Assembly (NCBI RefSeq): GCF_008065095.1
Contig: NZ_CP042911.1
Span: 900,001-932,000 of the forward strand
Direction of reading: 5' to 3'
DNA: 32,000 nucleotides
Source of the DNA: Gemmata obscuriglobus
Lineage (GTDB): Bacteria; Planctomycetota; Planctomycetia; Gemmatales; Gemmataceae
Positions 2,617-32,000 of this stretch are shown here, in pieces. The position numbers and the translations under genes were made by a program. Within the stretch, counting starts at the first letter, position 1. Each line of letters starts with the position of its first letter. The notes under the pieces are model-generated. The model had not been told where the DNA came from, did no database searches, and was given only the letters and a program-made list of their open reading frames with translations.

Positions 2617-2775
2617 CGGATCACCCTGGTACGGGCGGAACGGGTCGGCGTGGGGCCGACGGGAACCGCTCTACAGTAGAACACGCCCCCGCCCGTGCAA
2701 CCCGCGGGCGCGGAATTATTGGCCCCGGCGAATCGTGTTCTATCCTGCATTAATCCCCAACCGCCCGGGCACCCG

Positions 2776-4143: not shown

Positions 4144-4203
4144 GCTGGTCGGCGGACCTGTGTTATGCTAGAAGCGCCCACCACTCTGGCCCTTCGGGTC
4201 CGT

Positions 4204-12440: not shown

Positions 12441-14525
12441 TCAGGCGTTCTTCCGCTTGGCGCGTCGCTTCGCCCCGGCCGGCTGACTGACGGGCACCGT
12501 CTTGTTGCCCAACACGCTCGGCGGTGCGGCGTCGCCGTGCTTCTTGCGCAGCTCGGTTTCGAGCCGCACGATCTGGTCGCGCAGCGCCTGCGCGCGTTCG
12601 AAGTCGAGCGTTTTGGCCGCCTCGAGCATCTCCTCGTACAGGCTCTGAACGTACTCGACCGTGACGTAGTCTTCCGCCGCAGCGCTGCTGCCGGTCGCGG
12701 CCGCCTGCGCCATCTGGTGCGCCTCGATCTCGTCCTCGATCTCGTTCTTGATCGCCGTCTTCACCGTTTGCGGCGTGATCCCGTGTTCGGCGTTGTACGC
12801 GAGCTGGATCTCGCGCCGCCGGTTCGTTTCGTTCATGGCCCGGCTCATCGAGTCGGTCACCACGTCGGCGTACAGGATCACCTCCGCGTTCACGTTCCGC
12901 GCGGCGCGGCCCATCGTCTGGATCAGCGACTTGTCGGACCGCAGGAAGCCCTCCTTGTCGGCGTCGAGGATGGCCACCAGCGACACCTCCGGCAGGTCGA
13001 GGCCCTCGCGGAGCAGGTTCACCCCCACCAGCACGTCGAACTGTCCCTCGCGCAGCTCCCGGAGCACCTGAATGCGTTCGATCGCGTCGAGTTCCGAGTG
13101 GAGCCACTTGCACCGCATCCCGGCGTCGCGGAAGTAGGTGGTGAGGTCTTCCGCCATGCGCTTGGTGAGCACCGTTACGAGCGCCCGTTCGCCCTTCGCG
13201 GCCCGGGTGCGCACCTCGGCCTCCAGGTCCTTGACTTGCCCGCGGGCGGGCTTCACGTGGATGACCGGGTCGACCAGCCCGGTCGGCCGGATCACCTGTT
13301 CGACCACCTCCCCGCCGACCTTCTCCAGTTCGTAGGGGCCGGGGGTCGCGGAGAGGCACAGGCACTGCGTCATCCGCTTCTCGAACTCGTCGAACTTGAG
13401 CGGCCGGTTGTCGAGCGCGCTCGGCAGCCGGAACCCGTGCGCGACCAGCGTTTCCTTGCGGCTGCGGTCCCCGAAGTACATCCCGCGGACCTGCGGCAGC
13501 GTGACGTGCGACTCGTCCACCACGAGCAGGAAGTCTTCAGGGAAGAAGTCGATGAGCGTGTACGGCGCCTCGCCGGGCGCGCGGCCGCTGAACCAGCGGG
13601 CGTAGTTCTCGATGCCGGAGCAGTACCCCACCTCGCGGAGCATGTCCAGGTCGTACCGGCAGCGGGCCTTGAGCCGCTCCATTTCCAGCAGCTTGCCCTC
13701 GGTCTTGAACTGCTCGAGCCGCTGGTTCAGTTCCTCTTCGATGCCCTTGATGGCCGCCTGGACGCGCTCCTCCGGGGTGACGAAGTGCTTCGCCGGGTAG
13801 ATGTAGAGGTCGTCCAGCGGCCGGATCGTTTCGCCGGACACCGGGTGGATCACCGACAGCGTCTCGACGTCGTCGCCGAACAGCTCGATCCGGTACGCGA
13901 ACTCCTCGGACGCCGGCCACACGTCGATGGTGTCGCCGCGGACCCGCACCGTCCCGCGCTCGAACGCCACGTCGTTCCGCTTGTACTGGATGTCGATCAG
14001 CCGCAGGAGCATGTTGTCCCGGTCGAGCGTCTCCCCCTTGCGGACGTAGACCATCATCCGCTTGTAGTCGGAGGGGGACCCGAGGCCGTAGATGCACGAC
14101 ACCGACGCGACGATGATGACGTCCTCGCGGCTCACGAGGGCGGACGTGGCGGCGAGCCGCAGCCGGTCGATGTTCTCGTTGATGCTGGAGTCTTTTTCGA
14201 TGTAGATGTCGCGCTGCGGGATGTACGCTTCGGGCTGGTAGTAGTCGTAATAGCTGACGAAGTAGTGGACCGCGTTGTTCTTGAAGAACCCTTTGAACTC
14301 CTTGTAGAGCTGGGCGGCGAGGGTCTTGTTGTGGGCCAGCACCAGCGTGGGCTTGTTCGCGCGGGCGATGACGTTGGACGCGGTGAACGTCTTCCCGGTG
14401 CCGGTGGCGCCGAGGAGCACCTGGACCTTTTTGCCGTTGGCGAACCCCTGGGTAAGCTGCTCGATGGCTTTGGGCTGGTCGCCGGCGGGCGCGTAATCGC
14501 TGGTGATCTGGAACCGGGCTGCCAT
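12441..14525 (-). CDS. uvrB: Excinuclease ABC subunit B
   Basis: A 694-aa ORF with an ATG start. It begins [24 protein letters not shown] and carries Walker [20 protein letters not shown] (DExH), the beta-hairpin region [10 protein letters not shown], helicase C motifs ([36 protein letters not shown]) and the C-terminal UVR domain ([11 protein letters not shown]). Confidence 0.97.
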
Positions 14526-17870: not shown

Positions 17871-18681
17871 ATGCCCACCCTGATTGTGGCGGGTTCGCCC
17901 CCGCGCGCTTCCGCCAACGGCCCGGTGCCATCTGCCGGATACGACCAACGAATCAGCGCCGCGGCGCTCGACGCCGGTTGGTCGGTAATCCGCTCGTCAC
18001 GCGATTGCGTGCCGACTAATGTGCCGGAACCGGTGGTGTACGTGACGACGGAACTCGCAGTGCTGGCCGCGCGAACGCTCGACATCGCTTTGCTGGAACC
18101 GCCGTTCGATCTGCTTACGCGGGTTCCGGGGCGGTTCCTCCGCCGAGCCGTTGGGTTCGCGACCTTTGCCGACCTAACGCGACTTCAGAAACGAACGTTC
18201 GTGAAACCAGCCGATCCGCTCGATAAATGGTTCGACGCCGGACTGTACGCGAACGCGCGCGACATCCGCACCTGTGGTGCGCTCATGTCCCGACGCCCCG
18301 GTTCTGCTCAGCGAGCCGGTCGAGTGGTCGGTGGAGTTGCGGTACTTTGTGCTGGAAGGGCGTGTGATCGCGGGCTCACCGTATCTCTCTTACGGGCGCC
18401 CCGCGTGGCGCCGCACGGACGCATCAGGTCCGCTGCCCACTGCGGGGCGACCGTTGGTCGAGCAACTTTGTGCGGACATGAAAGACCGGCTGCCGCCGGT
18501 GTTTGTGGCTGACGTGGGACTGATCGAGGACCGCGGTTGGGCGGTGGTGGAGTTCAACCCGGTGTGGTCGGCCGGGTTGCTGAATGCCGACCCGGGTGCC
18601 GTGCTTCCGGCACTTCAGCGGGCCAGCCGGCGCCGCACCGAACTGACCGACGACGACCGCCGCTGGGATTTGCCAAAGTGA
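17871..18681 (+). pseudogene. ATP-grasp (R2K/DUF4343-like) gene interrupted by a +1 frame change near 18270-18285
   Basis: Frame A (17871...) reads ...RTFVKPADPLDKWFDAGLYANARDIRT and then degenerates. Frame B (from about 18274) continues with CPDAPVLLSEPVEWSVELRYFVLEGRVIAGSPYL...VADVGLIEDRGWAVVEFNPVWSAGL. Joined, the two pieces read like one ATP-grasp protein. A GGAG lies 6 nt before the 17871 ATG. Confidence 0.5.
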
Positions 18682-18761
18682 CACCGAACCAGCCCGTTGC
18701 GTTCGTGCGGCCGCGGCCGCATAATTCACCGCTGTCACACCCCAGAAGGAACCTCTCTAAC

Positions 18762-20051
18762 ATGCGCCTCGCACTCACCCTCACACTCACCGCGGCCGGG
18801 CTGACCGCCGCGCTCACCCCGTCGGCCGCCGCGCCCAAGGCCGGCGAGCCAGTCATCACCTGGAAAAAGACCGTTCTCGACACCAAGTTCCGGTCCGAAG
18901 GCGTGGCCGTCGCGGACGTGAACAAGGACGGCAAGATCGACGTACTCAACGGCGAGTACTGGTACGAGGCGCCGGACTGGAAGGCCCACGAACTGCAACC
19001 GTTCATGGACCACAAGGACGGGTTGCGCAACTACAGCCGCGTGTTCGCGTGCTGGACCGAGGACCTCAACGGGGACGGCTACGCGGACCTCATCGTGATC
19101 GACTTTCCGGGCGCACCGTGCTACTGGATGGAGAACCCGAAGGGCAAAGCGGCTGGCGAAAACGGCAAGCCGCTGCACTGGAAGAAGCACATCATCTGGC
19201 ACTCCGCCTGTAACGAAACGCCGCTCTACACGGAACTGACTGAGCAGGGTAAGCGTGTCCTCATCATGGGCTCGCAGCCGAAGGGCAAAGAGACCGAAGG
19301 GCAGATGGCCTACTTCACCCCCAACCCGAAGGACCCGACGGCGCTGTGGGAACTGCACCCAATCAGTGAGCCCAGCGTCGCGCCGGAAATGAAGGACGGC
19401 AAGCCGGTTCCGAACACCGGGACGGAGATCCCGGGCACGCGGAAATTCAGCCACGGGCTGGGAGTCGGTGACATCAACGGGGACGGCCGCGCCGACGTGA
19501 TGTGCGTTAACGGGTGGTGGGAACAGCCCGAGAAGGCCGACGGAAAAACGGCCTGGAAGTTCCACCCCGCCAACTTGGGCGCCGCCGCGGCAGACATGTA
19601 CGCCTACGACATGGACGGCGACGGCAAAGCCGACGTCATCAGCTCTTCCGCCCACCAGTTCGGCATCTGGTATCACAAGCAGCGCGCCACGAGCAAAGAC
19701 GGCCACCCGACGTTCGAGAAGGTGGACCTGTTCCCGAAGCTGGTGAGCGAGACCCACGCAGCGCACTTCAAGGACATCGACGGCGACGGCCGCCCGGACC
19801 TCATCACCGGCAAGCGCTGGTGGAGCCACGGGCGGGCTGAACCGGGCTCCGACGGTCCGGCCGCGATCTACTGGTTCAAGAACACGAAGGGCGCCGACGG
19901 GATCGTCAAGTTCACCCCGATGACCATCGACGAAGATTCCGGCATCGGAACCCAGTTCGAGGTCGCGGACATCAACGGCGACGGGTTGCTCGACGTGATC
20001 TCGTCGAACAAGAAGGGCGTCCGAGTGATCATTCAAGAACGGAAGAGGTGA
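18762..20051 (+). CDS. Secreted FG-GAP/VCBS repeat protein
   Basis: The ATG at 18762 gives the signal peptide MRLALTLTLTAAGLTAALTPSAAAP. There are six repeats: ADVNKDGKIDVL, EDLNGDGYADLIV, GDINGDGRADVMC, YDMDGDGKADVIS, KDIDGDGRPDLIT and ADINGDGLLDVIS. The track start at 18537 is unlikely. Confidence 0.8.
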   Translation: MRLALTLTLTAAGLTAALTPSAAAPKAGEPVITWKKTVLDTKFRSEGVAVADVNKDGKIDVLNGEYWYEAPDWKAHELQPFMDHKDGLRNYSRVFACWTEDLNGDGYADLIVIDFPGAPCYWMENPKGKAAGENGKPLHWKKHIIWHSACNETPLYTELTEQGKRVLIMGSQPKGKETEGQMAYFTPNPKDPTALWELHPISEPSVAPEMKDGKPVPNTGTEIPGTRKFSHGLGVGDINGDGRADVMCVNGWWEQPEKADGKTAWKFHPANLGAAAADMYAYDMDGDGKADVISSSAHQFGIWYHKQRATSKDGHPTFEKVDLFPKLVSETHAAHFKDIDGDGRPDLITGKRWWSHGRAEPGSDGPAAIYWFKNTKGADGIVKFTPMTIDEDSGIGTQFEVADINGDGLLDVISSNKKGVRVIIQERKR

Positions 20052-20083
20052 TCTCGGGCCGACGTTTCCTAGCTCAACACTGT

Positions 20084-20122
20084 GCGGGCGTGAAGCAACG
20101 GAACCCGTTACCTCACGCCCGC
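20084..20122. terminator. Hairpin between convergent genes (10-bp perfect stem)
   Basis: gcgggcgtga (20084-20093) pairs with tcacgcccgc (20113-20122). It lies between the stop at 20051 (+) and the stop at 20149 (-). Confidence 0.5.
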
Positions 20123-20148
20123 CTCTGCCGTCCGATTCGCCCCGGCCG

Positions 20149-21276
20149 TTATGGCCGCGACGGAATCGGCAGAACGGTGGTGATCTGCGGCACGTCACCC
20201 GGCTTGGGAGCGTCGCCACTCGGCGCAAGCGGCATCGTGTTCGCCGTCGACGGTGCCCCTAACCCCTCCCGCCCCGGGATCGGGAGCGGGCCGTTCGGGA
20301 TCGGCATCATCGGTGCTTGCCCGTTCGGGATCGCGATCGGTGCCGCGCCCCCCAGGATCGGCATCATCGGCGCGGGAGCCGACTGGTTGCGGATCGGTAT
20401 CATCGGCCCCGTCCCGGCCCCGCTCCCGCCCAGCGGAATCGGTGGACCGGATTGCACTACTGTAGGGTTGCCGAACGCACGTGCGTCCGGAGGGAGCAGG
20501 GGCTCGCCTACCCGTTCCTTCGGCACCTTCTCCCACACCTGCGAGCCGAACGGCGCGCTAGTGTCGAACGTGATCGTCGATGCCGGCGAGAACAGCGTCG
20601 GACCGCTCTCCGGGTCGTACCGGGCCGAAATCTTCACCCGCGTGATGTCGGGTTTGTACGTCGGCCACGGCAGGAAGAGCTTGTAGCTCTGCCCGAACGT
20701 TTCGTCACGGGCCTGGAGGTTCCGCAACGTCGCCTTATCAAACTGCCACCGTTCCGGGGTCGCAGGCGACTGGCCCGGCGGTCGCGGACTGTCGTCCACG
20801 AGGTCCACCGTGAGCACCCCGTCGGCCTGCGCGAACTCCATCTTGGACCCGCTGTACAGGAACATATGCCCCACGACGCCGGGGTTCATCCGTCCGTTCT
20901 TCGTCGGGTCCGGAAGGTACGCGATCCGGTTCTGCCAGCCCACTGCGAAATCAGACGCGACGACCTTGCGCTCGAGCTTCGCGCCCAGCTTCGCAAGCGG
21001 GTTCGCTGGGGCAGCAGCCGGCGCCCCGCTCGTGACCGGCGCCGGCGTGGTGGCGGCCACGGGGGCCGTCGCCGACGCCTGCACCACCGGCCCGGGCGCT
21101 CCGCCCCCGCGCGCATCGTCCGTGCGGGTGGTCTCCTGCGGCGGCGGGAGCACCCCGGGCTTCATCACGTCCAACTTCTGGACCTCGGGCTTCTTCCCCT
21201 CCGTTGAGAGGCACCCGGTCCCGATCGCAAGCGCCCCGAGGGCGACTGCGGTCAGCGACGAATATCGTGCACCCAT
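20149..21276 (-). CDS. Lipoprotein of unknown function, translationally coupled to the secretin gene
   Basis: The ATG at 21274-21276 gives MGARYSSLTAVALGALAIGTGC, a lipobox-like LAIGTG/C. This start lies 25 nt inside the 3' end of the secretin ORF, whose stop is at 21252-21254. The C-terminus is Pro/Met/Ile-rich (PMIPI, PMMPI x2). The track ORF extension to 21990 is an off-frame read-through of the secretin gene. Confidence 0.7.
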   Translation of the reverse strand: MGARYSSLTAVALGALAIGTGCLSTEGKKPEVQKLDVMKPGVLPPPQETTRTDDARGGGAPGPVVQASATAPVAATTPAPVTSGAPAAAPANPLAKLGAKLERKVVASDFAVGWQNRIAYLPDPTKNGRMNPGVVGHMFLYSGSKMEFAQADGVLTVDLVDDSPRPPGQSPATPERWQFDKATLRNLQARDETFGQSYKLFLPWPTYKPDITRVKISARYDPESGPTLFSPASTITFDTSAPFGSQVWEKVPKERVGEPLLPPDARAFGNPTVVQSGPPIPLGGSGAGTGPMIPIRNQSAPAPMMPILGGAAPIAIPNGQAPMMPIPNGPLPIPGREGLGAPSTANTMPLAPSGDAPKPGDVPQITTVLPIPSRP

Positions 21277-24200
21277 GACTTCGTGCCCTCCGTGGCGTTG
21301 AGATACGGCTTCTGTTCGACCGGGGAGGCGTCCTTGCCTCGTCCCGGTTCCGGTTGGGTCGGCGCCGCGGCCGGCGGGGCGCTCATGGTGAAGCCGCGGT
21401 TCGGGGCACCCGGAACGGCGGGCGCCGGCGCGGCCGGAACCGGCTGTCCGGGCTGCTGCATCACGTACCCGGCGCCCTGCGGCGCGGCCGGGATTTGCGG
21501 GGCCGCCGGCACCGCCGGCGCGAAGCCGGGTTGCGGGAACGGCGGCGGCGCGAACACCGGCTGCGACGCACTCACCGGCATCACGCCCGAGGACGACGGC
21601 AGTGCCGCACCGGGAGTCCCCGGAAGGGGCACGTTCAGGCCGGGGGCCGGCATTGCCGCCGGTGCCGGCGTCAGCATCGGAGCGGGCTGGGCCGGGAGGA
21701 TCGCCGCCCCGCCGTTCGGCGGCATGACCGTGTTCTGCGGCACCATGCCCGGGGGCACGACCGTTCCGGGTTGCGGCTGCGGGGTTCCGGGCTGGAGCAC
21801 ACCCGTGGCCGCCCCGCCGTCGAGCGGGATCGGAGCGTTGAAGGTGCCGAAGTACGCCGGACCGGGCACGAAGTTGGGCTGGCCCTGCGGCCCGCCGGCC
21901 CCCGTCGGCACCGGGCGGGCGCCCGCCGCCGCCGGTCCCATCACCTCGCCGCCGTGCTTGTGGGTCGCCAGCACTTCCGGCAGGCACCACTTCAGCTTCG
22001 CCGACTCCTCCGCCAGGATGCGGGCGTTGTCGTACTCGCTGCGCACGATGTGCGGGGTCATGATGACCAGGATCTCGCGCCGCTGGACCTGGTGCGTCCG
22101 GTACCGGAACAGCGCCCCCAGGTACGGGATGTCCTTCGCGTACGGGATCCCGACCTCGCTCTTGGTCTCCTGTTTGCTGAGCAGCCCACCGAGCACGATC
22201 GTTTCGCCGTCGGACGCGAGCACGGTGGTCTGCACCGTTTGCGAGTTGAACACCGCCGCCTGGATGCCGCCCACGGCCACCGTGGAGGGCTGTACGCTGG
22301 ACACCGTCGGCTCCACCCGCATCAGCACCTTGCCGTCCGGGCTCACCCGCGGGGTAACCCGCAAGCTGATCCCGATGTCCTGGTACGTGATGCCCTGCTG
22401 GGCCAGGCCGTTGGTGATCGTGGTCGCGGTCGGCACCGGGTAGCTCTGGCCGATGTTCACGTACCCGGTCTGGCTGTCCGCCACCTGGATCTGCGGCCGG
22501 CTCAGCACGTCCACCCGGCCCTGCGCCTTGAGCGCCCGGACCAGGAGCGAGAACGTGTCGTTCGACGCCGAGAACACGAACCCGCCGACCCCTTGCGTGG
22601 GCGACGATCGCCCGACGCCCAGGTTCCCGAGCCCCTGGAACCCGACGATCCCGTTGCCCACGTTGTTACCGGCGGGCAGCGCGGTCGTGGTGTTGAAGTT
22701 CAGCGTCGTCCCGCGGTCGAAGAACACCGGGCTCTGGAGCCCCACCTCGACGCCCAGCTCTTCCGTGTTGTTGAGCTGCACCTCGGCGATGGTCACCTGG
22801 ATCACGACCTGCGGCGGCTGCGCGTCGATCTTGTCGATGATCCGCTTGATCTCGCCGAAGTACTCCGGCGTGGCGCTCACCAGCACGGTGTTGCTCACCG
22901 GCTCGGCGATCACCACCACGCTCCGCTGGAGCTGCTGGAACGCGCTGTTGAACTGCGCCCCGGTGTACACCTGTAGGGCCTGCGTGAAGAACTGCTGCAC
23001 CGAGTTGGCCACATCGGCCGCGGCCGCGTTCCGCAGCTTCACCACCTCGTGGTACCGGTTCTGCACCTGCGACCCCTCCAGCCGCGCGATGACTGCCCGG
23101 ATGGTGTCGAGGTCGTTGAGCGAGCCGGCCACGATGATGCTGTTGGTGCGGTCGTCCACCGACAGCCGCAGGTCGATCAGCGACGCCCCGGCCGACGGGT
23201 CCGAGCTGATCGTCAGCAGCGGCCGCGCCTGGGTGGTGTTCTGCCCGAGCCCCTGGTTCTGGATGCCGGTGGTGGCGGTCCGCCCCTGGCCGGTGAACAA
23301 TTGCGCGATCAGGTTCGCCGTCAGCGTCGCGTCGGCTCCCTGGGACAGCCGGAACACGTTCACGTAGGACCGCGCCGCGGCGACCGTGTCGAGGTTCTCG
23401 ATGAGCGTCTCGATGAGCTTCATCGTCTCGGTCGGGGCCGCGATGATCAGCGAGTTGATCCGGGCGTGCGAGACGATGTGGATGTCCTCGAGGAACCCCG
23501 TCTCGTACGTCTTCCCGTCCCGCGCCGAGTAGAACTTGATCGCGGTCGTCTTGGTGTGCAGCCCGCCGGCGCTGCCGGTCCCGATGGTCGGGATCAGCGC
23601 GTTGATCTGCTGCACCTGGGTGGCGCCGAACTGGCCGGTGGTCTGCCCGATCGCGCCCGGCGTGGCCCCCTGGGTGCCCAGGTTGAACTGGTTACCCTGG
23701 CCGAACTGGTTGGCGCCGCCGCCCTGGTTCGCGGTGATCCCGAACGCCGCCGCACCGCCCTGCAGTTGCGCCTGCGGGCCGGTGAACTGCTGCTGGGCCA
23801 GCGGGTTCAGCACGTTCGACGTCAGCGCCTGGCTCAGCACCTGCCCCAACTCGTCCGACAGCGCGTTCTTCAGCTTGAAGATGCGCATGTCGTTGACCGC
23901 TTTGGACGTCGAGATGTCCATGAGCGTGATCAGGTCTTCGACGTCCTTCAGGTCCCCCGGGGAGCCCTGGACGTACACCGTATTGCTGCTCGTATCAAAC
24001 GTGACCCGGAACTGGTTCTTCGTCTGCGGGTCGCCCGGGTATCGGGTGTTCCAGAAGTTCTGGATCTGGTACGCGACGAGCTGGGCCGACGCCCGCTTGA
24101 GCTGGAACGCCTTGAACGGCGCGCGGTTCGACTGGTCGAACAGCCGCTTCATCTCGTTCTTGGCGTCCTCGAACCGGGCCTCGGGCGCGACCAGTAGGAC

Positions 24201-27200
24201 CGCGTTGAGCCGCGGCAGGGCCAGCGCGGCCACGGCACCCGCGCTGGCTGCACCGGTGTTCTGCCCGAACCCGCCAAAGCCCACGTTGGTACTGCCGACC
24301 CGCGGCCCGGGCAGGTAGCCCCCGTTCTGCCCGAGTTGCACCCGGCCGAACAGCGCGTTGAACTGCTCGGCGACCGTGTTACAGTCGCCGTTCTCCAGCG
24401 TCACGATTTCCACCCGCGGCTGGGTGTTGCGGGCCGTGCGCTGCAGGATCTCGATCAGCTCCAGTACGATCTGGAGGTCTTTGGCGTCCGCGGTGCGGAG
24501 CACGAGCGCGTCGAGCCCCTGGATCGGGATCGCCGTGACGACGCCGCGCGGCGCGGGGCCGGTGTACACGCCGTCCCCGGAGCCCGGAGGCGCGGGAGGT
24601 GTCATCATGGGCGGGGCGCCCGGGATGACCGGCTGCTGCCCGCCGGCCATAACGATGGCGCCGAGCGGGCGGGGCGGAGCCGGGCGGTTGTACCCGAAGT
24701 CCGCCTCGTCGGTTTGCGGGTCGTAGATCGTGTGGACGGCCGAAGGGGCGTCCGTGCCCCGGTAGTCAAAATTTGCGGTCGGCCCTCCGTTGTTCAGGCT
24801 CGCGGTCCGGCCCCCTCGGGCTCCCCCGCCTCCGCCCCCACCTCCGCGGTTACCTCCCCCGCCGGCACCACCTCCGCCTCCGCGGTTACCTCCCCCGCCG
24901 AAGCCGCCGGTGCCACCCCCGCCGAAGCCGCCGGTGCCGCCACCGAATCCACCACCGCCGAACCCACCTGTGCCACCGCCGAAGCCCCCGCCACCGGGGA
25001 ACCCGCCGCCGGTGCCGCCCCCGCCGAAGCCACCGGTGCCACCACCACCGCCGACTCCGCCGCGGCCGCCCTGCTGCCGCGAGTCGATGCCCCGCATCGC
25101 GTTCACGGCCTGCTGCACCACGTTCGGGTCCACGCCCTTCAACTGCACCAGCTTCACCACTTCGGTGGTCGTGACGGTGGCGCTGTCGAGTTGCTCGACC
25201 AGTTCCCGCACGTCGCCGTAGAGCGTTTCCGCGCACAGCAGGATGATGCTGTTACTGCGGTCGTCCACGGAGATCGACAGCGCCGGCGGCTGCTGTTGTT
25301 GCTGCCCGCCACCGCCTTGAAGCGCCGCGGCGAACGGGTTGAACGCCGGCATCGCCCCGACCGCCGCGTTGCGGCCGGTGGTGCCCATCGCGCTGCGGTA
25401 CACGTCCCGCACCACCGTGGCCATCTCCGCCGCGTCCGCGTTCTTCAGCGGGATGATGAACGTCTTGAGCACCGCGGCCGAGTCGTTGACCCCCGCGTCG
25501 ATCGTGCCGCCGAGCAGTTTCTCGATGAGCACCAGATCGACGGGGCTGGCCTTCACCACCACCACCGAGTTGCTGCTCTTCTCGGCGACCACGCGGATGC
25601 GGTCCTTGGACGCCGGGCCGGTGTCACCGCCCCCGCCCAAACCGAGCAGTGCGAGCGGGTTGAGCCCCCCGAACCCGCCACGGCCGCCACCGGGACCGCC
25701 ACCGCCGCCGCGCTGCTGTTGCTGCTGCGGGCCGTTGAAAATCTCGGTCAGTTCGCGGGCGGCATCTTCCGCCGCCACGTACTTCAGGCGGATCACCCGG
25801 AACAGGTTCTCGTCCGGCTTCGCGCCCTCGGTGACGATGTACCGGGCCAGTTGCGACAGCACGTCGAGGGCCGCGGTGTCCTCGCTCTCGATCACCAGCC
25901 GGTTGCCGGCCACGGTGATGACGATCGGCTTGTCTTCCCGCTTGGCCGGGTCCACGACCTGCGCGGCGATCAGGAAGTCCCGCCCCGGGAGCGGCTCACG
26001 CGCCCCGAGGGGCGGCGGCTTGACCGGGGCCGGCAACTTCGGCGGGTCCGCCTTCGGGCGCAGCGGGCTGGAACCCGGGGCCGGGGCCGGGTTCGTCCGC
26101 GGAGCCGGGTTCAGCGGGTCCTGGATGATGACCCGCTTGCCCCGCCCTTCCATCACGCGGCTGAACATCTCCGCGACCGCGGCGGCGTTCGCGCTGCCGC
26201 CCAGGTTGATGGTGCGTGTGGTGCCGCCCAGGCTTGGTGCCACCCCACCCGGCCCGGGGATGCTTGTTTCGCCGAGGAGTTTGAGGGTTTTCTTGGCATC
26301 GGCAATTTGTGCCGGCGTGCCTTTGATCAGTATCCCGACGTTCGGCCCTGTCTTTTGCGCTTCGATCGTCGGCCCACCCGCGGCGGGGGTCGGACTCAAC
26401 TTCGTCAGTTGGGTCGCGGCATCGCCCGGATCGAGATCGTTCAGCGGGATGAAAGTCGTTTCCACGGCCTCGGCGCCGCCGACACCGCCTTCACCGCCGT
26501 TAATGATCTTGGCGATGTCGAGCAGATCCATCGGGGCTGCGAGAACCATGATCTGGTTCTGGGCCGGCAGAGGAATCGCCGTTACCCACGGGAACCGGGT
26601 CTGGATCGTCTTTGCCAGTTCCGCTGCGGACCCGGCCGGCACGCTGAACGATTTCAGCACCGGCTCAGCCGCGACCAGCGGCTTTTGGTCTGGATATAGC
26701 GGTTGGTCCTGTTCTTCGATCAGCTTCTTCGCGAGCCCGATCTTGTCTTGCGGCGCGGTTACCAGGATGGCGTTGCGACGCGTGTCGACAGCGACCTGAA
26801 CGGTTTTGACACGCCCCCCACCGGTAACCGGAGCCGATGGCGTTGCACCGCGGCCACGGTCGCCCCCGCGGTCACCACCACCCGGGCCGCCCCAACCGCC
26901 ACCACCCGGGCCGCCCCAACCGCCACCTCCCGGACCGCCCCAGCCGCCACCCGGGCCGCCCCAGCCGCCCTGACCTTGGGTGCCGGTGACGTCCACCTTG
27001 ACGTCCTGGTTGGTCATCAGTTTCGCCAGCACCTCGGCTAGCTCTTGCGGGCGGCGGTACTTGCAGACGTGAGTCAGGTTGTCTGCTCCGTCCTTCTCCT
27101 CGATATCGCGGAGCGTCTTCTGGATGCGGATGATGTTGCCGACCGTATCCTGCACCAGGTACGAGTTGGGCTGCGTCAGCGGGATCATGGTCCCGAACGG

Positions 27201-27779
27201 GGTGAGCAGCTTCTTCAACTCGTCGATCGAGTCGGTGACCACCATTCCCTTAACCGGCAGCACGATCTGCACGATCTCGGTGCGGCCCCGGCTCGGCAAT
27301 TCGTCCAGGGCGATGCGCGGCAGCAGCGTCGGATCGATTTTTTCGTCGGACGGCTGGATGAAGAACGTCATGTGCCGGCGGATGAGCAGAAACTTCTGCT
27401 GCATCATCGCCTCGTTGATGAGGTCGGTGACCTCGCCGATGGTGAACTTTTTGTCCTTGCCGGGCTTGATGGCGACGGTGCCGGTGGGCTTGACGGTCGT
27501 GATGAGCGTCAGTCCGGTTTCCTTGGCGTACCAGTCGAGGACCTCGTCCCAGCCGGCCTTCTCGAAGTGGATGCTGACCAACTTCTCGGCAGGCGCCGCC
27601 GGCGCGGTCGGCGCGACGGCCCCGGGCTTGCCGGGCGCGGGCATCGGCTGCGCGAGCACCATGTCCACGGGGCCAGCCAACCCGGCCGCGGCGGCGAGCA
27701 CGCCGGGGAGCCATTTGCGGAGCTTCAGGAGCTTCCAGACCGGAACCGCTCTCAGCCGGTTCCCGTGACGCGGAGCCAT
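21252..27779 (-). CDS. Giant secretin (GspD/PilQ superfamily), 2175 aa
   Basis: ATG start. The signal-like N-terminus is WLPGVLAAAAGLAGPVDMVLAQP. The canonical C-terminal secretin core (about 22040-22818) reads PPQVVIQVTIAEVQLNNTEELGVEVG...VDVLSRPQIQVADSQTGYVNIGQSYPV...ITYQDIGISLRVTPRVSPDGKVLMRVEPTVSSV...TTVLASDGETIVLGGLL...IPYLGALFRYRTHQVQRREILVIMTPHIVRS. It is preceded by about 12-13 Secretin_N-like repeats, identified by manual pattern reading only. Confidence 0.9.
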   Translation of the reverse strand: MAPRHGNRLRAVPVWKLLKLRKWLPGVLAAAAGLAGPVDMVLAQPMPAPGKPGAVAPTAPAAPAEKLVSIHFEKAGWDEVLDWYAKETGLTLITTVKPTGTVAIKPGKDKKFTIGEVTDLINEAMMQQKFLLIRRHMTFFIQPSDEKIDPTLLPRIALDELPSRGRTEIVQIVLPVKGMVVTDSIDELKKLLTPFGTMIPLTQPNSYLVQDTVGNIIRIQKTLRDIEEKDGADNLTHVCKYRRPQELAEVLAKLMTNQDVKVDVTGTQGQGGWGGPGGGWGGPGGGGWGGPGGGGWGGPGGGDRGGDRGRGATPSAPVTGGGRVKTVQVAVDTRRNAILVTAPQDKIGLAKKLIEEQDQPLYPDQKPLVAAEPVLKSFSVPAGSAAELAKTIQTRFPWVTAIPLPAQNQIMVLAAPMDLLDIAKIINGGEGGVGGAEAVETTFIPLNDLDPGDAATQLTKLSPTPAAGGPTIEAQKTGPNVGILIKGTPAQIADAKKTLKLLGETSIPGPGGVAPSLGGTTRTINLGGSANAAAVAEMFSRVMEGRGKRVIIQDPLNPAPRTNPAPAPGSSPLRPKADPPKLPAPVKPPPLGAREPLPGRDFLIAAQVVDPAKREDKPIVITVAGNRLVIESEDTAALDVLSQLARYIVTEGAKPDENLFRVIRLKYVAAEDAARELTEIFNGPQQQQQRGGGGGPGGGRGGFGGLNPLALLGLGGGGDTGPASKDRIRVVAEKSSNSVVVVKASPVDLVLIEKLLGGTIDAGVNDSAAVLKTFIIPLKNADAAEMATVVRDVYRSAMGTTGRNAAVGAMPAFNPFAAALQGGGGQQQQQPPALSISVDDRSNSIILLCAETLYGDVRELVEQLDSATVTTTEVVKLVQLKGVDPNVVQQAVNAMRGIDSRQQGGRGGVGGGGGTGGFGGGGTGGGFPGGGGFGGGTGGFGGGGFGGGTGGFGGGGTGGFGGGGNRGGGGGAGGGGNRGGGGGGGGARGGRTASLNNGGPTANFDYRGTDAPSAVHTIYDPQTDEADFGYNRPAPPRPLGAIVMAGGQQPVIPGAPPMMTPPAPPGSGDGVYTGPAPRGVVTAIPIQGLDALVLRTADAKDLQIVLELIEILQRTARNTQPRVEIVTLENGDCNTVAEQFNALFGRVQLGQNGGYLPGPRVGSTNVGFGGFGQNTGAASAGAVAALALPRLNAVLLVAPEARFEDAKNEMKRLFDQSNRAPFKAFQLKRASAQLVAYQIQNFWNTRYPGDPQTKNQFRVTFDTSSNTVYVQGSPGDLKDVEDLITLMDISTSKAVNDMRIFKLKNALSDELGQVLSQALTSNVLNPLAQQQFTGPQAQLQGGAAAFGITANQGGGANQFGQGNQFNLGTQGATPGAIGQTTGQFGATQVQQINALIPTIGTGSAGGLHTKTTAIKFYSARDGKTYETGFLEDIHIVSHARINSLIIAAPTETMKLIETLIENLDTVAAARSYVNVFRLSQGADATLTANLIAQLFTGQGRTATTGIQNQGLGQNTTQARPLLTISSDPSAGASLIDLRLSVDDRTNSIIVAGSLNDLDTIRAVIARLEGSQVQNRYHEVVKLRNAAAADVANSVQQFFTQALQVYTGAQFNSAFQQLQRSVVVIAEPVSNTVLVSATPEYFGEIKRIIDKIDAQPPQVVIQVTIAEVQLNNTEELGVEVGLQSPVFFDRGTTLNFNTTTALPAGNNVGNGIVGFQGLGNLGVGRSSPTQGVGGFVFSASNDTFSLLVRALKAQGRVDVLSRPQIQVADSQTGYVNIGQSYPVPTATTITNGLAQQGITYQDIGISLRVTPRVSPDGKVLMRVEPTVSSVQPSTVAVGGIQAAVFNSQTVQTTVLASDGETIVLGGLLSKQETKSEVGIPYAKDIPYLGALFRYRTHQVQRREILVIMTPHIVRSEYDNARILAEESAKLKWCLPEVLATHKHGGEVMGPAAAGARPVPTGAGGPQGQPNFVPGPAYFGTFNAPIPLDGGAATGVLQPGTPQPQPGTVVPPGMVPQNTVMPPNGGAAILPAQPAPMLTPAPAAMPAPGLNVPLPGTPGAALPSSSGVMPVSASQPVFAPPPFPQPGFAPAVPAAPQIPAAPQGAGYVMQQPGQPVPAAPAPAVPGAPNRGFTMSAPPAAAPTQPEPGRGKDASPVEQKPYLNATEGTKSWVHDIRR

Positions 27780-28004
27780 AAATTCCCCCCAGTAACGGCG
27801 ATCGTGTCCGTCGTTCCGTGTAGTGCAGGTCGCCCGTTCCCCAACAGGCGGCCCGCTGGACCGGCGGAGGTGTTCACGCGTGTGATTGCGGCTGAATATC
27901 GTGCTGCTCAGAAGCCATCAACGGAAAACCGCCGGGGAGCGCAAACTTTTAATCTGACCCCAGTTTATCCCAACTGCGCCGTTGCCGCGCTGTTAGATCG
28001 GGAT

Positions 28005-28090
28005 GAGAGAAAAGAAAAGGGGTGGGCGCCCCGCGGGGGCTGGCGCGAGCGGGTCGCTGCCGCCCGCGCCGCTCGGCGCCCCGGACCCCC
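28005..28090 (-). terminator. GC-rich compound hairpin followed (minus strand) by a T-rich run
   Basis: gggcgcc (28024-28030) pairs with ggcgccc (28075-28081), and flanking ggggt/acccc extend the stem. On the minus strand the structure is followed by ccttttcttttctctc (complement of 28005-28020). Confidence 0.35.
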
Positions 28091-28436
28091 TGCGCCGGGC
28101 ACACGCCGTTCGTGTTCGCTCCAAGAGCCAGTCCATCGAGTAAGCTCCCAATACGACACTTCTGAAACGGGTTGGACTCATCGCACGGTCACAGCGGGGG
28201 CAGATGCCCGGTCGAACGGTTCACCACCCGCTCGAATTCCACATCGCAAGCACCAGCTCTAAAAGGTCTTGCAGCTATTTCGCCCTGAATCACCTGGGCC
28301 AGTCGCACCGCCCAAAGTGCCGCGTTTGCGGTTTGAAACGTTGGATTCGTGGGCCGCAGCACGCCAGCGAATGGGTAGTCCGTAACCAGTCAACGGGTAG
28401 CGGCTGTCCAGTCCCTTCCCCTGTTGGCGGCAACCG

Positions 28437-28468
28437 ACCGGTGGTGTAACCCCCGTTACACCACCGGT
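28437..28468. repeat. Perfect 14-bp stem hairpin with a 4-nt loop in a non-coding region
   Basis: accggtggtgtaac-cccc-gttacaccaccggt. No T tract follows on either strand. Confidence 0.7.
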
Positions 28469-28765
28469 GCTGGCAGAGTGAACGGGGACGTAGTGCAGAA
28501 GCGATTCGATTCGGCTTTGCGAGTGTCGGAAAGCACACTTCCTATGCCTACCGGCGGGTCGGAGGTCCGCGCTCGGGCGTCGTCTCGCAGGCAAAGCACG
28601 CCCAAGTGTCTCATCACTCGCCATCCACACCGGCGGCGATCATTCTTTTTGCACCCCGGAGGGGTCGCCGGACGTAGCACAGGGCGGAATCCATGTGCCG
28701 CGGCATCTCCCCTAATGACCTGATGGCACGCACCGTTTCCGCGGAGGGGCGGCCCCAACGACCGG

Positions 28766-31700
28766 TTACGAGAGCAGCAGTTCCAGGTCCTCGCGCTTCA
28801 AATCGGTGACGCCCTTTCCATCGCCACCAAGGATCGCGTCGGCCAGTTCGCGCTTGCTCTGCTGCAACTCCAGCACCTTCTCCTCGACCGTCCCCCGCGC
28901 GATCAGCCGGTACGCGAACACCGGCTTCGTCTGCCCGATCCGGTAGCTGCGGTCGATCGCCTGGGCCTCCGCCGCCGGGTTCCACCACGGGTCCAGCAGG
29001 AACACGTACTCGGCCGCGGTCAGGTTCAGCCCCACCCCGCCCGCCTTCAGGCTCACCAGGAACAGCTTGCACGCCGGGTCCGTCTGGAACCGCTCCACGC
29101 GCTTGTCGCGGTCGCGGGTGCGGCCGTCGAGGTACTCGAATTGGATGCCCTCCGCGGTCAGCCGCTTGCGCACGATGTCGAGCAGCGACGTGAACTGCGA
29201 GAACACCAGCGCCTTCTGCCCGCTCTCGGCGAGTTCCTGGAGCTGCGGGAGGAGGTAGTCGAGCTTGGCGCTCGCGTCGCCGGTGCGCTTCTTGTCGATC
29301 AGCCCGGGGTGGCACGCGGCCTGGCGCAGCCGCATGAGTGCCGCGAGCACCTGGATCTGCGAGCGCTTCAGCCCGACCGAATCGACGTGCGCCAGCAGCG
29401 ACGCCCGGTAGTGGTCGCGCAGCTCGTCGTACACCTGCCGCTGGGACGGTTCCAGGTCGCAGTACACCGTCTGCTCGGTCTTCTGCGGCAGGTCCTTTGC
29501 GACCTGGGCCTTGGTGCGCCGCAGGATGTACGGCCGCAGCGCCCGCGCCAGGAACTCGCGCGTCTCGGCGTCCGGGTTGCGGATCGAGCCGGCGCCGGCG
29601 AGCGCCGCGCGGCCCAGCATCCCGGGGTTTAGGAAGTCGAACAGCGTCCACAGCTCGCCCAGGTGGTTCTCGACGGGCGTGCCGCTCAGCGCCAGCCGGT
29701 GGTCGGCCTGGATCACCCGCACCGCCTTCGCGGTCTCGGTCGCGGCGTTCTTGGCCGCCTGCGACTCGTCCAGCACGCACGTGTCGAACCGGACCTCCGC
29801 GAACGCCGCCGCGTCGTTGCGGAGGGTGCCGTAGGTGGTCAGCACGAGGTCGAAGTCTTTGAAGTTCGCGCAGGTCCGGTCGCGCGCGGTGCCGGTGTGG
29901 TCGAGCACCTTCAGCTTCGGGGCGAACCGCGCGGCCTCCCGCTTCCAGTTGAACACCAGCGACCGCGGGACCACGACGAGCGCCGGCCCGGACCGCTTGC
30001 CCGCGAGCAGCGCCAGCACCTGCACGGTTTTGCCCAGCCCCATGTCGTCGGCGAGGCACCCGCCGAACCCGAACTTGCGGAGGAACCGGAGCCAGCCCAG
30101 CCCCTCGCGCTGGTACTCGCGCAGCTCGCCCTTGAACACCTTCGGCGGCGCGGCCGGTTCGATCCCCTGGAACCGTCGCAGCTCGTCGCGGGCGCGGGCG
30201 AACTGCTTGTCGAACGTCACCTCGGGGCGGGCCGCCAGCAGCGCGTCGAGGACGCCGACCTGGGCGCGCGAGAACCGCACCGCGTCGCCCTCCACGGCGC
30301 CCATCTGCGCGAGCAGCCCGTACTTCTTGAGCCACTCCTCGGGCACCATCCCGAAGCTGCCGTCGTCGAGCAGCACGCTCGTCTGCCCCTTGGTGAGCGC
30401 TTCGAGCAGCCGGGGGAAGGGGACCGACCGGCCGTCGAAGTTGGCCGCCCCGCGCAGGTCGAACCAGTCGTTCTCGGTGCGCACCTCCATCCGGAAGTCG
30501 TCGGCCTTGCGGTACAGCTTCCCTTCCGCTTCTACGGCCCAGCCGGCGGTCACCAGTTCGCGGGTGAGCTTCGGCAGCAGGGTCGGTTTGAGTTCGAGCG
30601 GCGGCTCGCCGCCGCCCCAGCCGTAGGTGCCCTGCCGCACGCCGAGCCGGGTGAGTTCCTGCTCGGCGGCGCGCTCGACGGCCGCGTCCCGGAGCAGGAA
30701 CCGACGGCTCCCGGGCTTGAACGCGCCGCGCGTCGGCGGGCGCACCGGGACGATCACGCCGTCGTAATCGAACGACAGCTCGGCGTTGAGCACGGGGGCG
30801 CCGTAGTGCTGCTTCGCGGGCTTCACCACGAGCCGGGGCCGCGGCGCGACCGCCTCTTCCGTGACCCGCAACTCTTCGGGCAGGTCCAGGCGCGGCAGGG
30901 TGGGCATCTGGAACAGTTGCGCGACCAGATCGTCGGACTTCGCAACGGGAACGGTGATCGCCCCGGCGCGGCGCAGCGTCGGCACCCAGGGGAACGCGCC
31001 CGCGTCGCTGAACCGGCCGAACCGCCCGTTCCACACGACGACCCCGGGGACCAGGAGCGCGGGCTCCGTCAGCCCCATCACCTCCGCGCCGCGGCGCAGG
31101 CTCCCGCCGAGCACCCACTCCTTGTCGCCGTCGCGCGTCACCCCGGCGGCCAGCTCCCACGGCGGTCCCGGGTCGGCGGTCAGGTCTTCCAGAACGACGG
31201 GCGGCGCCGGGTCGCGGCGCAGCTTCACGCGGCCGGTCTGGGCGAGCAGCGGCAGCACCGCTTCGAGCAGCGGCCCGGCCACGCGGTACCGCCCGGAGCT
31301 GGACCCGTAACTGGTCCCGTAGGGAGAGCCGTAATAGCCGTAACTGTCGCCGCGCTCGGCCCCGCCGAGTAGGGCGAGCAACTGCCGGTCGGTCGGGTCG
31401 GTCAGGGCCTCGATTTGTGCGTTCGTGAGGTACTGGAACTTCGGCTTGCCCCACTCGCCGTTGCGCTTCCGCTCCTGCGTGCCGACCTCCAGGACGAGCT
31501 TGCGGGCCGCTTCACTGGCCGGCACGTCGATGATGAACACGAGCTGCTGTTCGGTGGTCCGGACGGTCGGCCGTGTGCCGGTCGCCGGCTGGATCTCGCG
31601 GCTCACGGCGGCGAGCAGGTCGGCCCAGTTCTCTTTTTTCTTCTTGGGTGCCGCGGGAGCCGGGAGGCGCAGCGGGTACGGGTCGGCGTAATCGTCCTCG

Positions 31701-32000
31701 TAGAACGCCTCCTCGTCGAGCACCAGGTGCAGTGTCCCCTTGGCCGCGGCACTGCGGGCGAACGGCCCGGCGTCGGCCGCGATGACCGTCGCCCAGATGT
31801 GCTTGCAAATGGCCCCGTGCTCGGCGGTGTACGGGCAGGAGCATGCGGCGAAAACGGTCTGCCCCTCGAGCAGCAGATCGACCTCGTAGTCGTCGGCCCC
31901 CTCGACCGTCGCCGCGACGGCGTTGTGCGTCGTGCGGTCGAGGGTCACCGCCCCGTTCCGGTAGTACTCCCGCCCGCGATCGCGGATGGTCTGGGGGACT
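28766..32000 (-). CDS. SWIM zinc-finger + SNF2-family helicase (N-terminus runs off right edge)
   Basis: The SWIM motif is FAACSCPYTAEHGAICKHIWA. SNF2 motifs are LADDMGLGKTVQ (I), CVLDESQAAKN (II), LSGTPVENHLGELW (III), and SLKAGGVGLNLTAAEYVFLLDPWWNPAAEAQAIDRSYRIGQTKPV (V-VI). The frame stays open upstream of the track GTG start at 31948 and reads ...IRDRGREYYRNGAV out to position 32000, so the true start is outside the window. Confidence 0.9.
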   Translation of the reverse strand, partial: VPQTIRDRGREYYRNGAVTLDRTTHNAVAATVEGADDYEVDLLLEGQTVFAACSCPYTAEHGAICKHIWATVIAADAGPFARSAAAKGTLHLVLDEEAFYEDDYADPYPLRLPAPAAPKKKKENWADLLAAVSREIQPATGTRPTVRTTEQQLVFIIDVPASEAARKLVLEVGTQERKRNGEWGKPKFQYLTNAQIEALTDPTDRQLLALLGGAERGDSYGYYGSPYGTSYGSSSGRYRVAGPLLEAVLPLLAQTGRVKLRRDPAPPVVLEDLTADPGPPWELAAGVTRDGDKEWVLGGSLRRGAEVMGLTEPALLVPGVVVWNGRFGRFSDAGAFPWVPTLRRAGAITVPVAKSDDLVAQLFQMPTLPRLDLPEELRVTEEAVAPRPRLVVKPAKQHYGAPVLNAELSFDYDGVIVPVRPPTRGAFKPGSRRFLLRDAAVERAAEQELTRLGVRQGTYGWGGGEPPLELKPTLLPKLTRELVTAGWAVEAEGKLYRKADDFRMEVRTENDWFDLRGAANFDGRSVPFPRLLEALTKGQTSVLLDDGSFGMVPEEWLKKYGLLAQMGAVEGDAVRFSRAQVGVLDALLAARPEVTFDKQFARARDELRRFQGIEPAAPPKVFKGELREYQREGLGWLRFLRKFGFGGCLADDMGLGKTVQVLALLAGKRSGPALVVVPRSLVFNWKREAARFAPKLKVLDHTGTARDRTCANFKDFDLVLTTYGTLRNDAAAFAEVRFDTCVLDESQAAKNAATETAKAVRVIQADHRLALSGTPVENHLGELWTLFDFLNPGMLGRAALAGAGSIRNPDAETREFLARALRPYILRRTKAQVAKDLPQKTEQTVYCDLEPSQRQVYDELRDHYRASLLAHVDSVGLKRSQIQVLAALMRLRQAACHPGLIDKKRTGDASAKLDYLLPQLQELAESGQKALVFSQFTSLLDIVRKRLTAEGIQFEYLDGRTRDRDKRVERFQTDPACKLFLVSLKAGGVGLNLTAAEYVFLLDPWWNPAAEAQAIDRSYRIGQTKPVFAYRLIARGTVEEKVLELQQSKRELADAILGGDGKGVTDLKREDLELLLS

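Follow-up and report, generated by a model that had tools for sequence, protein, structure and literature searches.

In textbook secretins, the outer-membrane channel domain is preceded by an N0 domain and two to three further N-domains. Additional N-domains are found in PilQ of Thermus thermophilus, a protein of 757 amino acids (aa) whose domains N0-N5 form six stacked rings in a complex of 350 Å, the extra rings being interpreted as spanning an unusually wide periplasm (PMC5745081). Planctomycetes, among them Gemmata obscuriglobus, are known to have an enlarged periplasm of variable size (PMC5394234). Here we describe a secretin gene in a 32,000-nucleotide (nt) stretch of G. obscuriglobus DNA (contig NZ_CP042911.1, positions 900,001 to 932,000 of the forward strand; hereafter the window, in whose numbering coordinates are given). 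Its product is about three times the usual size because it holds 13 periplasmic ring-building domains instead of the usual three, and probably represents the GspD of a planctomycetal type II secretion system (T2SS).

A 2175-aa secretin conserved in Gemmataceae

The open reading frame (ORF; Table 1) has GC contents of 0.68, 0.50 and 0.89 at the three codon positions, typical of genuine genes, in a window of ~68% GC. Its translation is 100% identical to WP_029601151.1 of G. obscuriglobus, and the same 2175-aa sequence is held under three separate GenBank protein accessions. Since WP_029601151.1 is annotated as 'Type II secretion system protein D precursor' or 'secretin N-terminal domain-containing protein', the assignment to the family is already in the databases and is not new. 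From its N-terminus, the protein comprises a signal-peptide-like region, a T2SS-type N0, 13 Secretin_N-type domains (R1-R13), a canonical secretin core and a proline-rich tail. Over the whole sequence, Pfam Secretin_N (PF03958) scores 237 bits in seven stretches, and Secretin (PF00263) covers its full model (1-169) at aa 1749-1913, with 153.6 bits against a threshold of 27.5. Translation and both Pfam families confirm the first-pass annotation, made from the DNA sequence alone, which had read a giant 2175-aa secretin at 21252-27779; the ordinary C-terminal core that it placed at 22040-22818 corresponds to aa 1655-1913. As read from the translation, the N-terminus has a basic n-region, a hydrophobic h-region and the motif VLA followed by QP, a pattern conserved in the family consensus, and the putative signal-peptide cleavage site is placed between VLA and QP.

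Eighty-six homologues of 1.85-2.45 kaa (thousand aa), from isolates as well as metagenomes, align collinearly with the same domain order and with an occupancy of ~99% at every repeat. At the level of sequence, the 13-domain architecture is shown to be conserved by position across Gemmataceae and, because it is collinear in these homologues, the ORF is not the chimera that the first-pass annotation had considered.

Thirteen N-domains follow a T2SS-type N0

The N-domain count is N0 plus 13, which agrees with the 12-13 repeats initially estimated by eye and is based on Pfam, hhalign and AlphaFold2 (AF2). With R13 as a phmmer query against its own protein the other repeats are barely detected, and within a 36-repeat relative the best identity between repeats is 35-51%; since single-sequence self-comparison barely sees such old, diverged repeats, profile methods were needed. 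In a Pfam search of excised pieces, with inserts removed, seven of the 13 repeats (R2, R6, R7, R10, R11, R12 and R13) pass the Secretin_N gathering score of 28.2 (28.5-47.4 bits), four (R3, R4, R8 and R9) give sub-threshold matches of 13-20 bits that cover most or all of the model (E 0.12 to 0.001), and R1 and R5 have no Secretin_N match. An all-versus-all hhalign comparison of per-repeat sub-alignments, cut from the alignment of the 86 full-length homologues, connects each of the 13 repeats to at least one other with a probability of at least 90%, most pairs reaching 95-99%, whereas N0 and three pieces of the secretin core, included as controls, score 0-7%. These numbers stand well above the two to four Secretin_N hits that the first-pass annotation had entertained as an alternative.

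The AF2 model spans aa 60-1140 (N0 and R1-R8) and was built from a 38-sequence alignment, with a mean predicted local distance difference test score (pLDDT) of 65, values of 70-90 in the folded parts and a predicted template modelling score (pTM) of 0.34. It contains N0 and then eight beta-alpha-beta-beta-alpha units that coincide with R1-R8, including the Pfam-negative R1 and R5 (the latter in the order beta-alpha-beta, insert, beta-beta-alpha) as well as R8, whose two halves are placed into one beta-alpha...beta-beta-alpha unit. The recurring pattern first noticed in the translation is therefore present in the model for R1-R8, and all the strings quoted for it were recovered: FRVIRLKY...LIEKLLG in R6, VDDRSNSIILL in R7, DTSSNTVYVQG in R10, VDDRTNSIIVAG in R12 and DTRRNAILVTAP in R2. 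Among R9-R13, four pass Pfam, and R9, with its sub-threshold Pfam match, is joined to ten other repeats by hhalign (92-98%). In the modelled region, the linkers between repeats measure 3-19 aa by secondary structure. Foldseek comparison of the model with the PDB ranks crystal structures of XcpQ and GspD N0-N1-N2 first (E 1e-11 to 1e-7), followed by full-length secretins of T2SS, type III secretion systems and type IV pili. R13, next to the secretin core, occupies the place of N3 in GspD.

Table 1. Features of the secretin locus and its surroundings in the window. Bits are Pfam Secretin_N scores of excised pieces, percentages are hhalign probabilities, and AF2 fold denotes the beta-alpha-beta-beta-alpha unit of the model.
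Feature	Residues (aa)	Position (nt)	Strand	Remarks
Secretin gene		21252-27779	-	ATG start, 2175 codons and stop; assigned as GspD-type of planctomycetal T2SS
Signal-peptide-like region	1-44	27648-27779	-	basic residues, hydrophobic LPGVLAAAAGLAGPVDMVLA, then QP; read from translation
N0	66-145	27345-27584	-	no Pfam match; well-folded alpha/beta in AF2, pLDDT ~85-90; Foldseek XcpQ/GspD; phmmer XcpQ
R1	166-229	27093-27284	-	no insert; no Pfam match; 90-93% to R4, R6, R7; AF2 fold
R2	234-358	26706-27080	-	40.3 bits with insert excised; AF2 fold; 65-aa Gly/Trp-rich disordered insert
R2 insert	258-322	26814-27008	-	Gly/Trp-rich, GGWGGPGGG units
R3	373-428	26496-26663	-	15.9 bits, E 0.015; 83-97% to nine repeats; AF2 fold
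R4	438-505	26265-26468	-	16.6 bits; 90-97% to ten repeats; AF2 fold
R5	520-651	25827-26222	-	most divergent; no Pfam match; 94% to R3, 86% to R10; 59-aa Pro-rich insert
R6	658-758	25506-25808	-	43.5 bits; AF2 fold; 43-aa Gly/Gln-rich insert
R6 insert	683-725	25605-25733	-	Gly/Gln-rich
R7	770-866	25182-25472	-	47.4 bits; AF2 fold; 36-aa insert
R8	872-1113	24441-25166	-	split by 182-aa insert; 13.1 bits over full model length; 86-90% to R4, R6, R10, R13
R8 insert	897-1078	24546-25091	-	43% Gly, GGFGGGG units, 7 FG dipeptides
R9	1121-1215	24135-24419	-	19.6 bits, E 0.001; 92-98% to ten repeats; 35-aa insert
R10	1222-1288	23916-24116	-	32.6 bits
R11	1296-1464	23388-23894	-	38.3 bits; 86-aa Gln/Gly-rich insert, then beta-hairpin-like TKTTAIKFYSARDGKTYETGFLEDIHIV
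R11 insert	1323-1408	23556-23813	-	Gln/Gly-rich
R12	1471-1568	23076-23369	-	28.5 bits; 38-aa insert
R13	1575-1653	22821-23057	-	47.0 bits, Pfam's best stretch in the full protein; adjoins core
Secretin core	1655-1925	22005-22817	-	outer-membrane channel domain; PF00263 at aa 1749-1913; most conserved part of the family
C-terminal extension		21255-22004	-	helix-like ARILAEESAKLKWC (~aa 1926-1949), then ~225-aa Pro/Ala-rich low-complexity tail; from translation; no Pfam match
Lipoprotein gene (375 aa)		20149-21276	-	downstream of secretin; ATG at 21276 overlaps last 8 secretin codons
Neighbouring non-secretion gene		2695-4143	+	
Neighbouring non-secretion gene		4165-5649	+	
Neighbouring non-secretion gene		7880-9748	+	
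UvrB		12441-14525	-	
Neighbouring non-secretion gene		18537-20051	+	
Neighbouring non-secretion gene		28766-31948	-	

Secretin repeat number varies by lineage within Planctomycetota

The phyletic distribution of long secretins, which the first-pass annotation had proposed to map, was surveyed in one genome per species with an alignment of the secretin core as query, extension of the ORFs and repeat counting by a custom hidden Markov model (HMM). This pooled 13-repeat HMM is untidy (130 match states) and finds 12 of the 13 repeats in the window protein, so that counts elsewhere are lower bounds. Secretins of 1078-1488 aa with 5-8 repeats are found in Pirellulales, Planctomycetales and Thermoguttaceae, those of Gemmata and Fimbriiglobus have 2022-2179 aa and 12-13 repeats, and intermediates have 1655-2550 aa and 13-26 repeats. 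In ten Phycisphaerae-type loci on contigs of metagenome-assembled genomes (MAGs) the ORF is open at the edge of the 10-kb flank, giving minima of at least 3611-3689 aa and at least 33-39 repeats, and over the Phycisphaerae-type MAG contigs as a whole the count runs from 24 to 39 or more; the protein databases hold complete relatives of 3515, 3633, 3804 and 4025 aa. Outgroups (Sphingomonas, Desulfobacterales, Verrucomicrobia and Sumerlaeota) have 404-867 aa and 0-3 repeats. These bands do not take in a few shorter loci whose labels are Pirellulales, Planctomycetaceae or Planctomycetia, with 562-1022 aa and 2-6 repeats, nor those of Tepidisphaeraceae, with 3 repeats in 867 aa, and Poriferisphaera, with 3 in 715 aa. 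Repeat number is thus shown to vary by lineage within Planctomycetota. Since the majority of the best 150 representatives of the core at 50% identity measure 1.8-2.3 kaa and one of them reaches 4025 aa, the Gemmata secretin is no oddity but stands in the middle of a trend that runs through the phylum.

Four Phycisphaerae-type secretins of 3.5-4.0 kaa have, together with the open loci, at least 33-39 N-domain repeats. Many Secretin_N-type repeats are also present in proteins for which no PF00263 is listed, namely P0116 (2461 aa, ~20 repeats) and P0097-P0120 (1.2-1.4 kaa), some of the latter also listing PF16231 or PF07813 domains, and N-domain arrays seem to occur outside secretins too. Planctomycete-like secretins were seen on three contigs labelled as Anaerolineales (2550 aa, 26 repeats), Klebsiella or Sphingomonadales MAGs; the Anaerolineales and Klebsiella labels look like binning errors, not real taxonomic spread.

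Orthologue operons point to a type II secretion system

The GspD equivalog model TIGR02517 matches with 431.3 bits against a cut-off of 351.35, its best stretch aligning aa 1498-1921 with model positions 186-599. Membership in other families was rejected, the PilQ (TIGR02515) and SctC (TIGR02516) models reaching 222.3 and 141.3 bits against cut-offs of 284.35 and 238.45, and MshL, HofQ and Amuc_1098 scoring under their cut-offs; a Pfam search of the secretin found no AMIN domain. Compared with PDB sequences, the core with R12-R13 matches PulD (6hcg) with 155 bits and GspD (5wq7 and 5zdh) with 127 and 126 bits, the PulD/GspD matches ranging overall from 155 to 105 bits, ahead of PilQ (~100), RcpA (80), pIV (65) and InvG (40), InvG and MxiD being the weakest. 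The N-terminus matches XcpQ N0-N1 by sequence (phmmer, E ~1e-3). Three N-domains (N1-N3) are expected between N0 and the core of GspD, and the 13 of the window protein set it apart as a variant.

In Tuwongella immobilis (L002), a 2118-aa orthologue is preceded by T2SSE, T2SSF, T2SSG, two N_methyl minor pseudopilins, T2SSJ and T2SSK, with a 531-aa GspL-like protein and a 422-aa protein between T2SSK and the secretin; GspL-like counterparts match PilM_2 in three other contigs, one of them faintly. The same T2SS operon lies upstream of orthologues on two further Gemmataceae-type contigs, of a 1352-aa relative, of two 3.5-3.8-kaa relatives on Phycisphaerae-type contigs and of the secretin at several Pirellulales/Planctomycetaceae loci, linkage to gspE/F/G and minor pseudopilin genes being displayed by loci L002, L003, L004, L005, L006 and L007. 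These operons hold homologues of the T2SS-specific GspJ and GspK and no retraction ATPase, and in Tuwongella, on the two further Gemmataceae-type contigs and on the Phycisphaerae-type contigs the T2SS operon is complete. The orthologues are shown to be the last large gene of a gspE-F-G-H-I-J-K-L-like-M-like operon, and the predicted cognate machine is a T2SS, a point settled by orthologue context. The first-pass annotation had noted that no partner genes flank the secretin in the window, which holds, and had left its cognate machine unknown, which the orthologue operons now correct. In Gemmata, Fimbriiglobus and Urbifossiella the secretin stands apart from the T2SS operon, and in Gemmata only a coupled lipoprotein gene remains linked to it.

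The gene just upstream of the secretin (L002 8575-9843, L005 8460-9695, L006 8290-9741 and L007 8214-9512, in locus coordinates) encodes 410-480 aa with no Pfam match, its Phycisphaerae-type counterpart having a faint T2SSM match only, and the GspK homologues of the orthologue operons measure 518-594 aa. We take both to be longer than classical GspM, GspC and GspK, and they may have adapted together with the long secretin.

A translationally coupled lipoprotein gene

The conserved gene that overlaps the secretin stop, overlooked in the first-pass annotation, encodes a lipoprotein with a lipobox (LAIGTG followed by the invariant Cys), a beta-sandwich core with the invariant motifs W.NR..PDPT and LFLPW..Y, and a Pro-rich tail. 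Urbifossiella and Tuwongella have an equivalent ORF with the same overlap, and at 13 of the loci compared tblastn detects a homologue downstream of the core. Altogether 92 homologues were identified, several on the same contigs as secretin homologues and apparently confined to Gemmataceae-type genomes; neither the lipoprotein nor any of the 92 has a Pfam domain.

In many pilotins, the lipoprotein gene is coupled to that of the secretin. The lipobox and the gene overlap agree with the definition of a pilotin as an outer-membrane lipoprotein encoded next to its secretin, and no similarity in fold or sequence to GspS/PulS, AspS, PilF/PilW or MxiM/YscW was found. AF2 predicts the beta-sandwich at aa ~105-240 (pLDDT ~90), for which Foldseek against the PDB returned generic Ig-like beta-sandwiches only (E 8e-4 or weaker) and no known pilotin. 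Judging from the gene coupling alone, the lipoprotein probably aids targeting, assembly or anchoring of the secretin in a pilotin-like manner, and it may represent a new pilotin or accessory family.

Low-complexity inserts and the C-terminal tail

Eight repeats (R2, R5, R6, R7, R8, R9, R11 and R12) are interrupted by low-complexity inserts, in each case in the alpha1-beta2 loop that follows the first helix. The inserts are Gly/Gln/Pro-rich, all those within the AF2 model are disordered, and across the family they keep their position and roughly their length. Their units are of the types GGWGGPGGG, GGFGGGG and Q/G/N-rich QFG. The R8 insert has a family median of 185 aa and includes a semi-conserved NFDYRG...YDP segment, and the additional beta-hairpin-like segment of R11 is highly conserved in the family alignment. 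An FG-nucleoporin-like reading of the Gly/Phe inserts was rejected: with 17 FG dipeptides in the whole secretin, and family medians of 5 for the R8 insert and 0-1 for the remaining inserts, the motif is too rare and too inconstant for an FG barrier to be more than remote speculation. The tail of the secretin varies in length across the family (median 156 aa, 25% Pro) and ends in a conserved motif, E..W..F/H.

Genomic surroundings

The secretin lies in a secretion-unrelated neighbourhood, with two tandem Ser/Thr protein kinases, a DUF4394 and FG-GAP protein, an FG-GAP/dockerin-like protein, a SWIM-SNF2 helicase, UvrB, an epimerase and a HEAT-repeat protein. An interval of ~1 kb (27780-28765) separates the secretin start codon from the stop of the helicase gene at 28766-31948 and holds neither a convincing gene nor a sigma-70-like promoter match, and a promoter and terminator scan of 19900-28800 found nothing beyond shuffled expectation.

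Discussion

Taken together, we consider it likely, with a probability of roughly 70%, that the ORF is the GspD of a planctomycetal T2SS whose N-domains are stacked as rings into a long periplasmic conduit. By analogy with other secretins, the protein would form a 12-15-mer, its C-terminal domain making up the gated pore in the outer membrane. Below the pore, the N-domains would build ring upon ring, and the resulting periplasmic conduit would reach with N0 as far as an inner-membrane platform (GspC/L/M-like). Fourteen rings would make this conduit ~50-70 nm long, as extrapolated from the 35-nm six-ring complex of Thermus PilQ; the repeat number would adapt the machine to the unusually wide planctomycetal periplasm, and the disordered Gly/Gln/Pro-rich inserts would decorate the tube. 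We infer the stacking of all repeats into one long tube from homology with GspD N1-N3 and Thermus PilQ N1-N5, and the short linkers of the model would resemble the N1-N2-N3 spacing of stacked rings.

Several observations weigh against this interpretation. The TIGR02517 score is summed over six stretches, so that the repeats inflate it. There is no T2SS partner gene within the 32-kb window, and the Tuwongella GspL-like query gave 32 matches, none labelled Gemmata, in a search that relies on shared 5-mers and is of limited sensitivity; the remainder of a T2SS in G. obscuriglobus is therefore putative. The structural model is an AF2 monomer of N0 and R1-R8, whose pTM makes its inter-domain geometry uninformative. 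A single stacked tube of 36-39 or more repeats would exceed 120 nm, straining the simple model, and even in classical secretins the N0-N2 rings are often flexible or disordered (PMC5745081).

A bolder version of the stacked-ring conduit, which we regard as tentative, is that the secretin is a modular trans-periplasmic pipe whose length is set genetically by the number of N-domain rings, equipped with gel-like loops and a lipoprotein assembly factor. The ring number may be ~6-9 in Pirellulales/Planctomycetales and 14 in Gemmatales, and reach 40 or more in Phycisphaerae. The disordered loops, conserved and rich in Gly, Phe and Gln, may be a gel-like lining or sleeve, and the new beta-sandwich lipoprotein may be the dedicated assembly factor. 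If this were true, sealed conduits from ~30 nm to well over 100 nm would be the longest known channels of a bacterial envelope, and in the boldest form such complexes may be the protein core of the crateriform or pore-like structures seen in planctomycetes by electron microscopy.

Rather unlikely, and yet the strongest alternative, is that in the same T2SS secretin only the membrane-proximal repeats form rings, and the distal ones make up a loose cage or 12-15 tethers that are flexible and extensible. As the periplasm widens and narrows, these distal repeats and their disordered inserts would hold N0 to the inner-membrane platform; alternatively, they would bind peptidoglycan or cargo. Among planctomycetal cells the periplasm is variable and can become much larger (PMC5394234), a situation to which a rigid tube of fixed length is poorly suited, all the more for the Phycisphaerae-type proteins, whose rigid tube would have the length given above; in solved secretin structures N0-N2 are frequently disordered, and the Thermus complex shows flexibility from ring to ring (PMC5745081). 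The long disordered inserts of eight repeats, and the distal R1, R3, R4, R5, R8 and R9, which depart furthest from Pfam Secretin_N, point the same way. However, the near-complete occupancy of every repeat among the 86 homologues argues for a specific structural place for each, and in Thermus PilQ all six N-domains do form rings (PMC5745081).

Far less probable is a protein that is T2SS-like by homology only and acts as the conduit for a surface fibre or as the press-stud core of crateriform structures. These are phylum-specific outer-membrane complexes that contact the cytoplasmic membrane and bear fibres (PMC5394234), and the uptake mechanism and its protein players are still called unknown (PMC5394234; 2025 review PMC12673574). 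Giant secretins of many rings are typical of the phylum and would reach across both membranes, and a pore-containing membrane fraction of G. obscuriglobus held a secretin-like 145-kDa and an EscC-like 28.5-kDa protein (PMC5287468 supplements). The masses of these two entries, however, match no fragment of the secretin ORF. ZP_02733574 (145,135 Da) has no start-codon-to-C-terminus fragment within 600 Da, and the matches to ZP_02734373 (28,539 Da) are arbitrary internal windows; because of this misfit, both are probably other secretin-like proteins. The orthologue operons hold T2SS-specific GspJ and GspK homologues and no retraction ATPase, the PilQ model stays under its cut-off and AMIN was not detected. 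T2SS and type IV filaments are narrower than the 12-nm crateriform fibre. That fibre width is reported in PMC5394234. Moreover, described Phycisphaeraceae are without crateriform structures (PMC8882080), yet the largest secretins are carried by MAG contigs labelled Phycisphaerae, Phycisphaeraceae or Phycisphaera.

An artefact (an assembly chimera formed through low-complexity tracts, a fused pseudogene or a mis-called start), conceivable in a gene with several Gly-rich, GC-rich tracts that are difficult to assemble, is effectively refuted by the three identical GenBank accessions, the length and domain order common to the 86 homologues, the third-position GC of 0.89 throughout the frame, the inserts kept in position and approximate length, and repeats that have diverged from one another with no sign of recent duplication.

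Full-text literature searches, with paywalled work outside their coverage, returned no account of planctomycetal secretins of giant size or of any secretins having a dozen or more N-domains, nor of a lineage-graded secretin repeat number or the coupled lipoprotein. Secretins with 13 N-domains, conserved as a class and grading in sister lineages to at least 39, would change ideas of what the periplasmic part of T2SS and type IV machines can be, and raise the questions of how a short pseudopilus 'piston' pushes cargo through a vestibule of 50-150 nm, where cargo enters and what role the disordered Gly-rich loops play. For secretion-system and planctomycete cell biologists alike, the secretin offers a concrete, genetically tractable probe of how the outer and cytoplasmic membranes are coupled across an enlarged, variable periplasm, and its repeat number a simple, testable predictor of envelope geometry across lineages.

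Comparison with known systems

The Gemmata secretin resembles GspD/PulD/XcpQ/EpsD (PDB 6hcg, 5wq7, 5zdh and 5wln), its best sequence matches, in the C-terminal core, and the XcpQ/GspD N0-N1-N2 crystals (4e9j and 3ezj) in having N0 followed by N-domains of the same fold. As in classical T2SS, the orthologues are found in a gspE-F-G-H-I-J-K operon with L/M-like genes, and a lipoprotein gene is coupled to the Gemmata secretin as in many pilotins. It differs from classical GspD in its length (2175 versus about 650 aa), in its 13 N-domains after N0 instead of 3, in the long Gly/Gln/Pro-rich disordered inserts of eight N-domains and in a ~225-aa Pro-rich tail that replaces the short S-domain. Unlike in classical T2SS, its gene is unlinked from the other T2SS genes, and the coupled lipoprotein is a beta-sandwich unlike any solved pilotin.

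With type IVa PilQ of Myxococcus and Pseudomonas (PDB 3jc8 and 6ve2) it shares a homologous core (~90-100 bits) and an N-terminal lengthening by repeated periplasmic domains, which in PilQ are peptidoglycan-binding AMIN domains, a type not detected in the Gemmata secretin. Crateriform structures are likewise a phylum-typical envelope complex joining the outer and cytoplasmic membranes (PMC5394234), of which a multi-ring secretin would be a plausible component; they have no molecular link to the secretin, and the two differ in distribution among Phycisphaerae, as described above. The nearest parallel is Thermus PilQ, which has also gained extra beta-alpha-beta-beta-alpha N-domains with N-domain loop insertions (PMC5745081). 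In contrast to the Gemmata secretin, it serves a type IV pilus and DNA-uptake machine, and its stacking is known from an experimental structure whereas that of the Gemmata protein is inferred only. After N0, Thermus PilQ has 5 N-domains, the Gemmata secretin 13 and its Phycisphaerae-type relatives at least 39.

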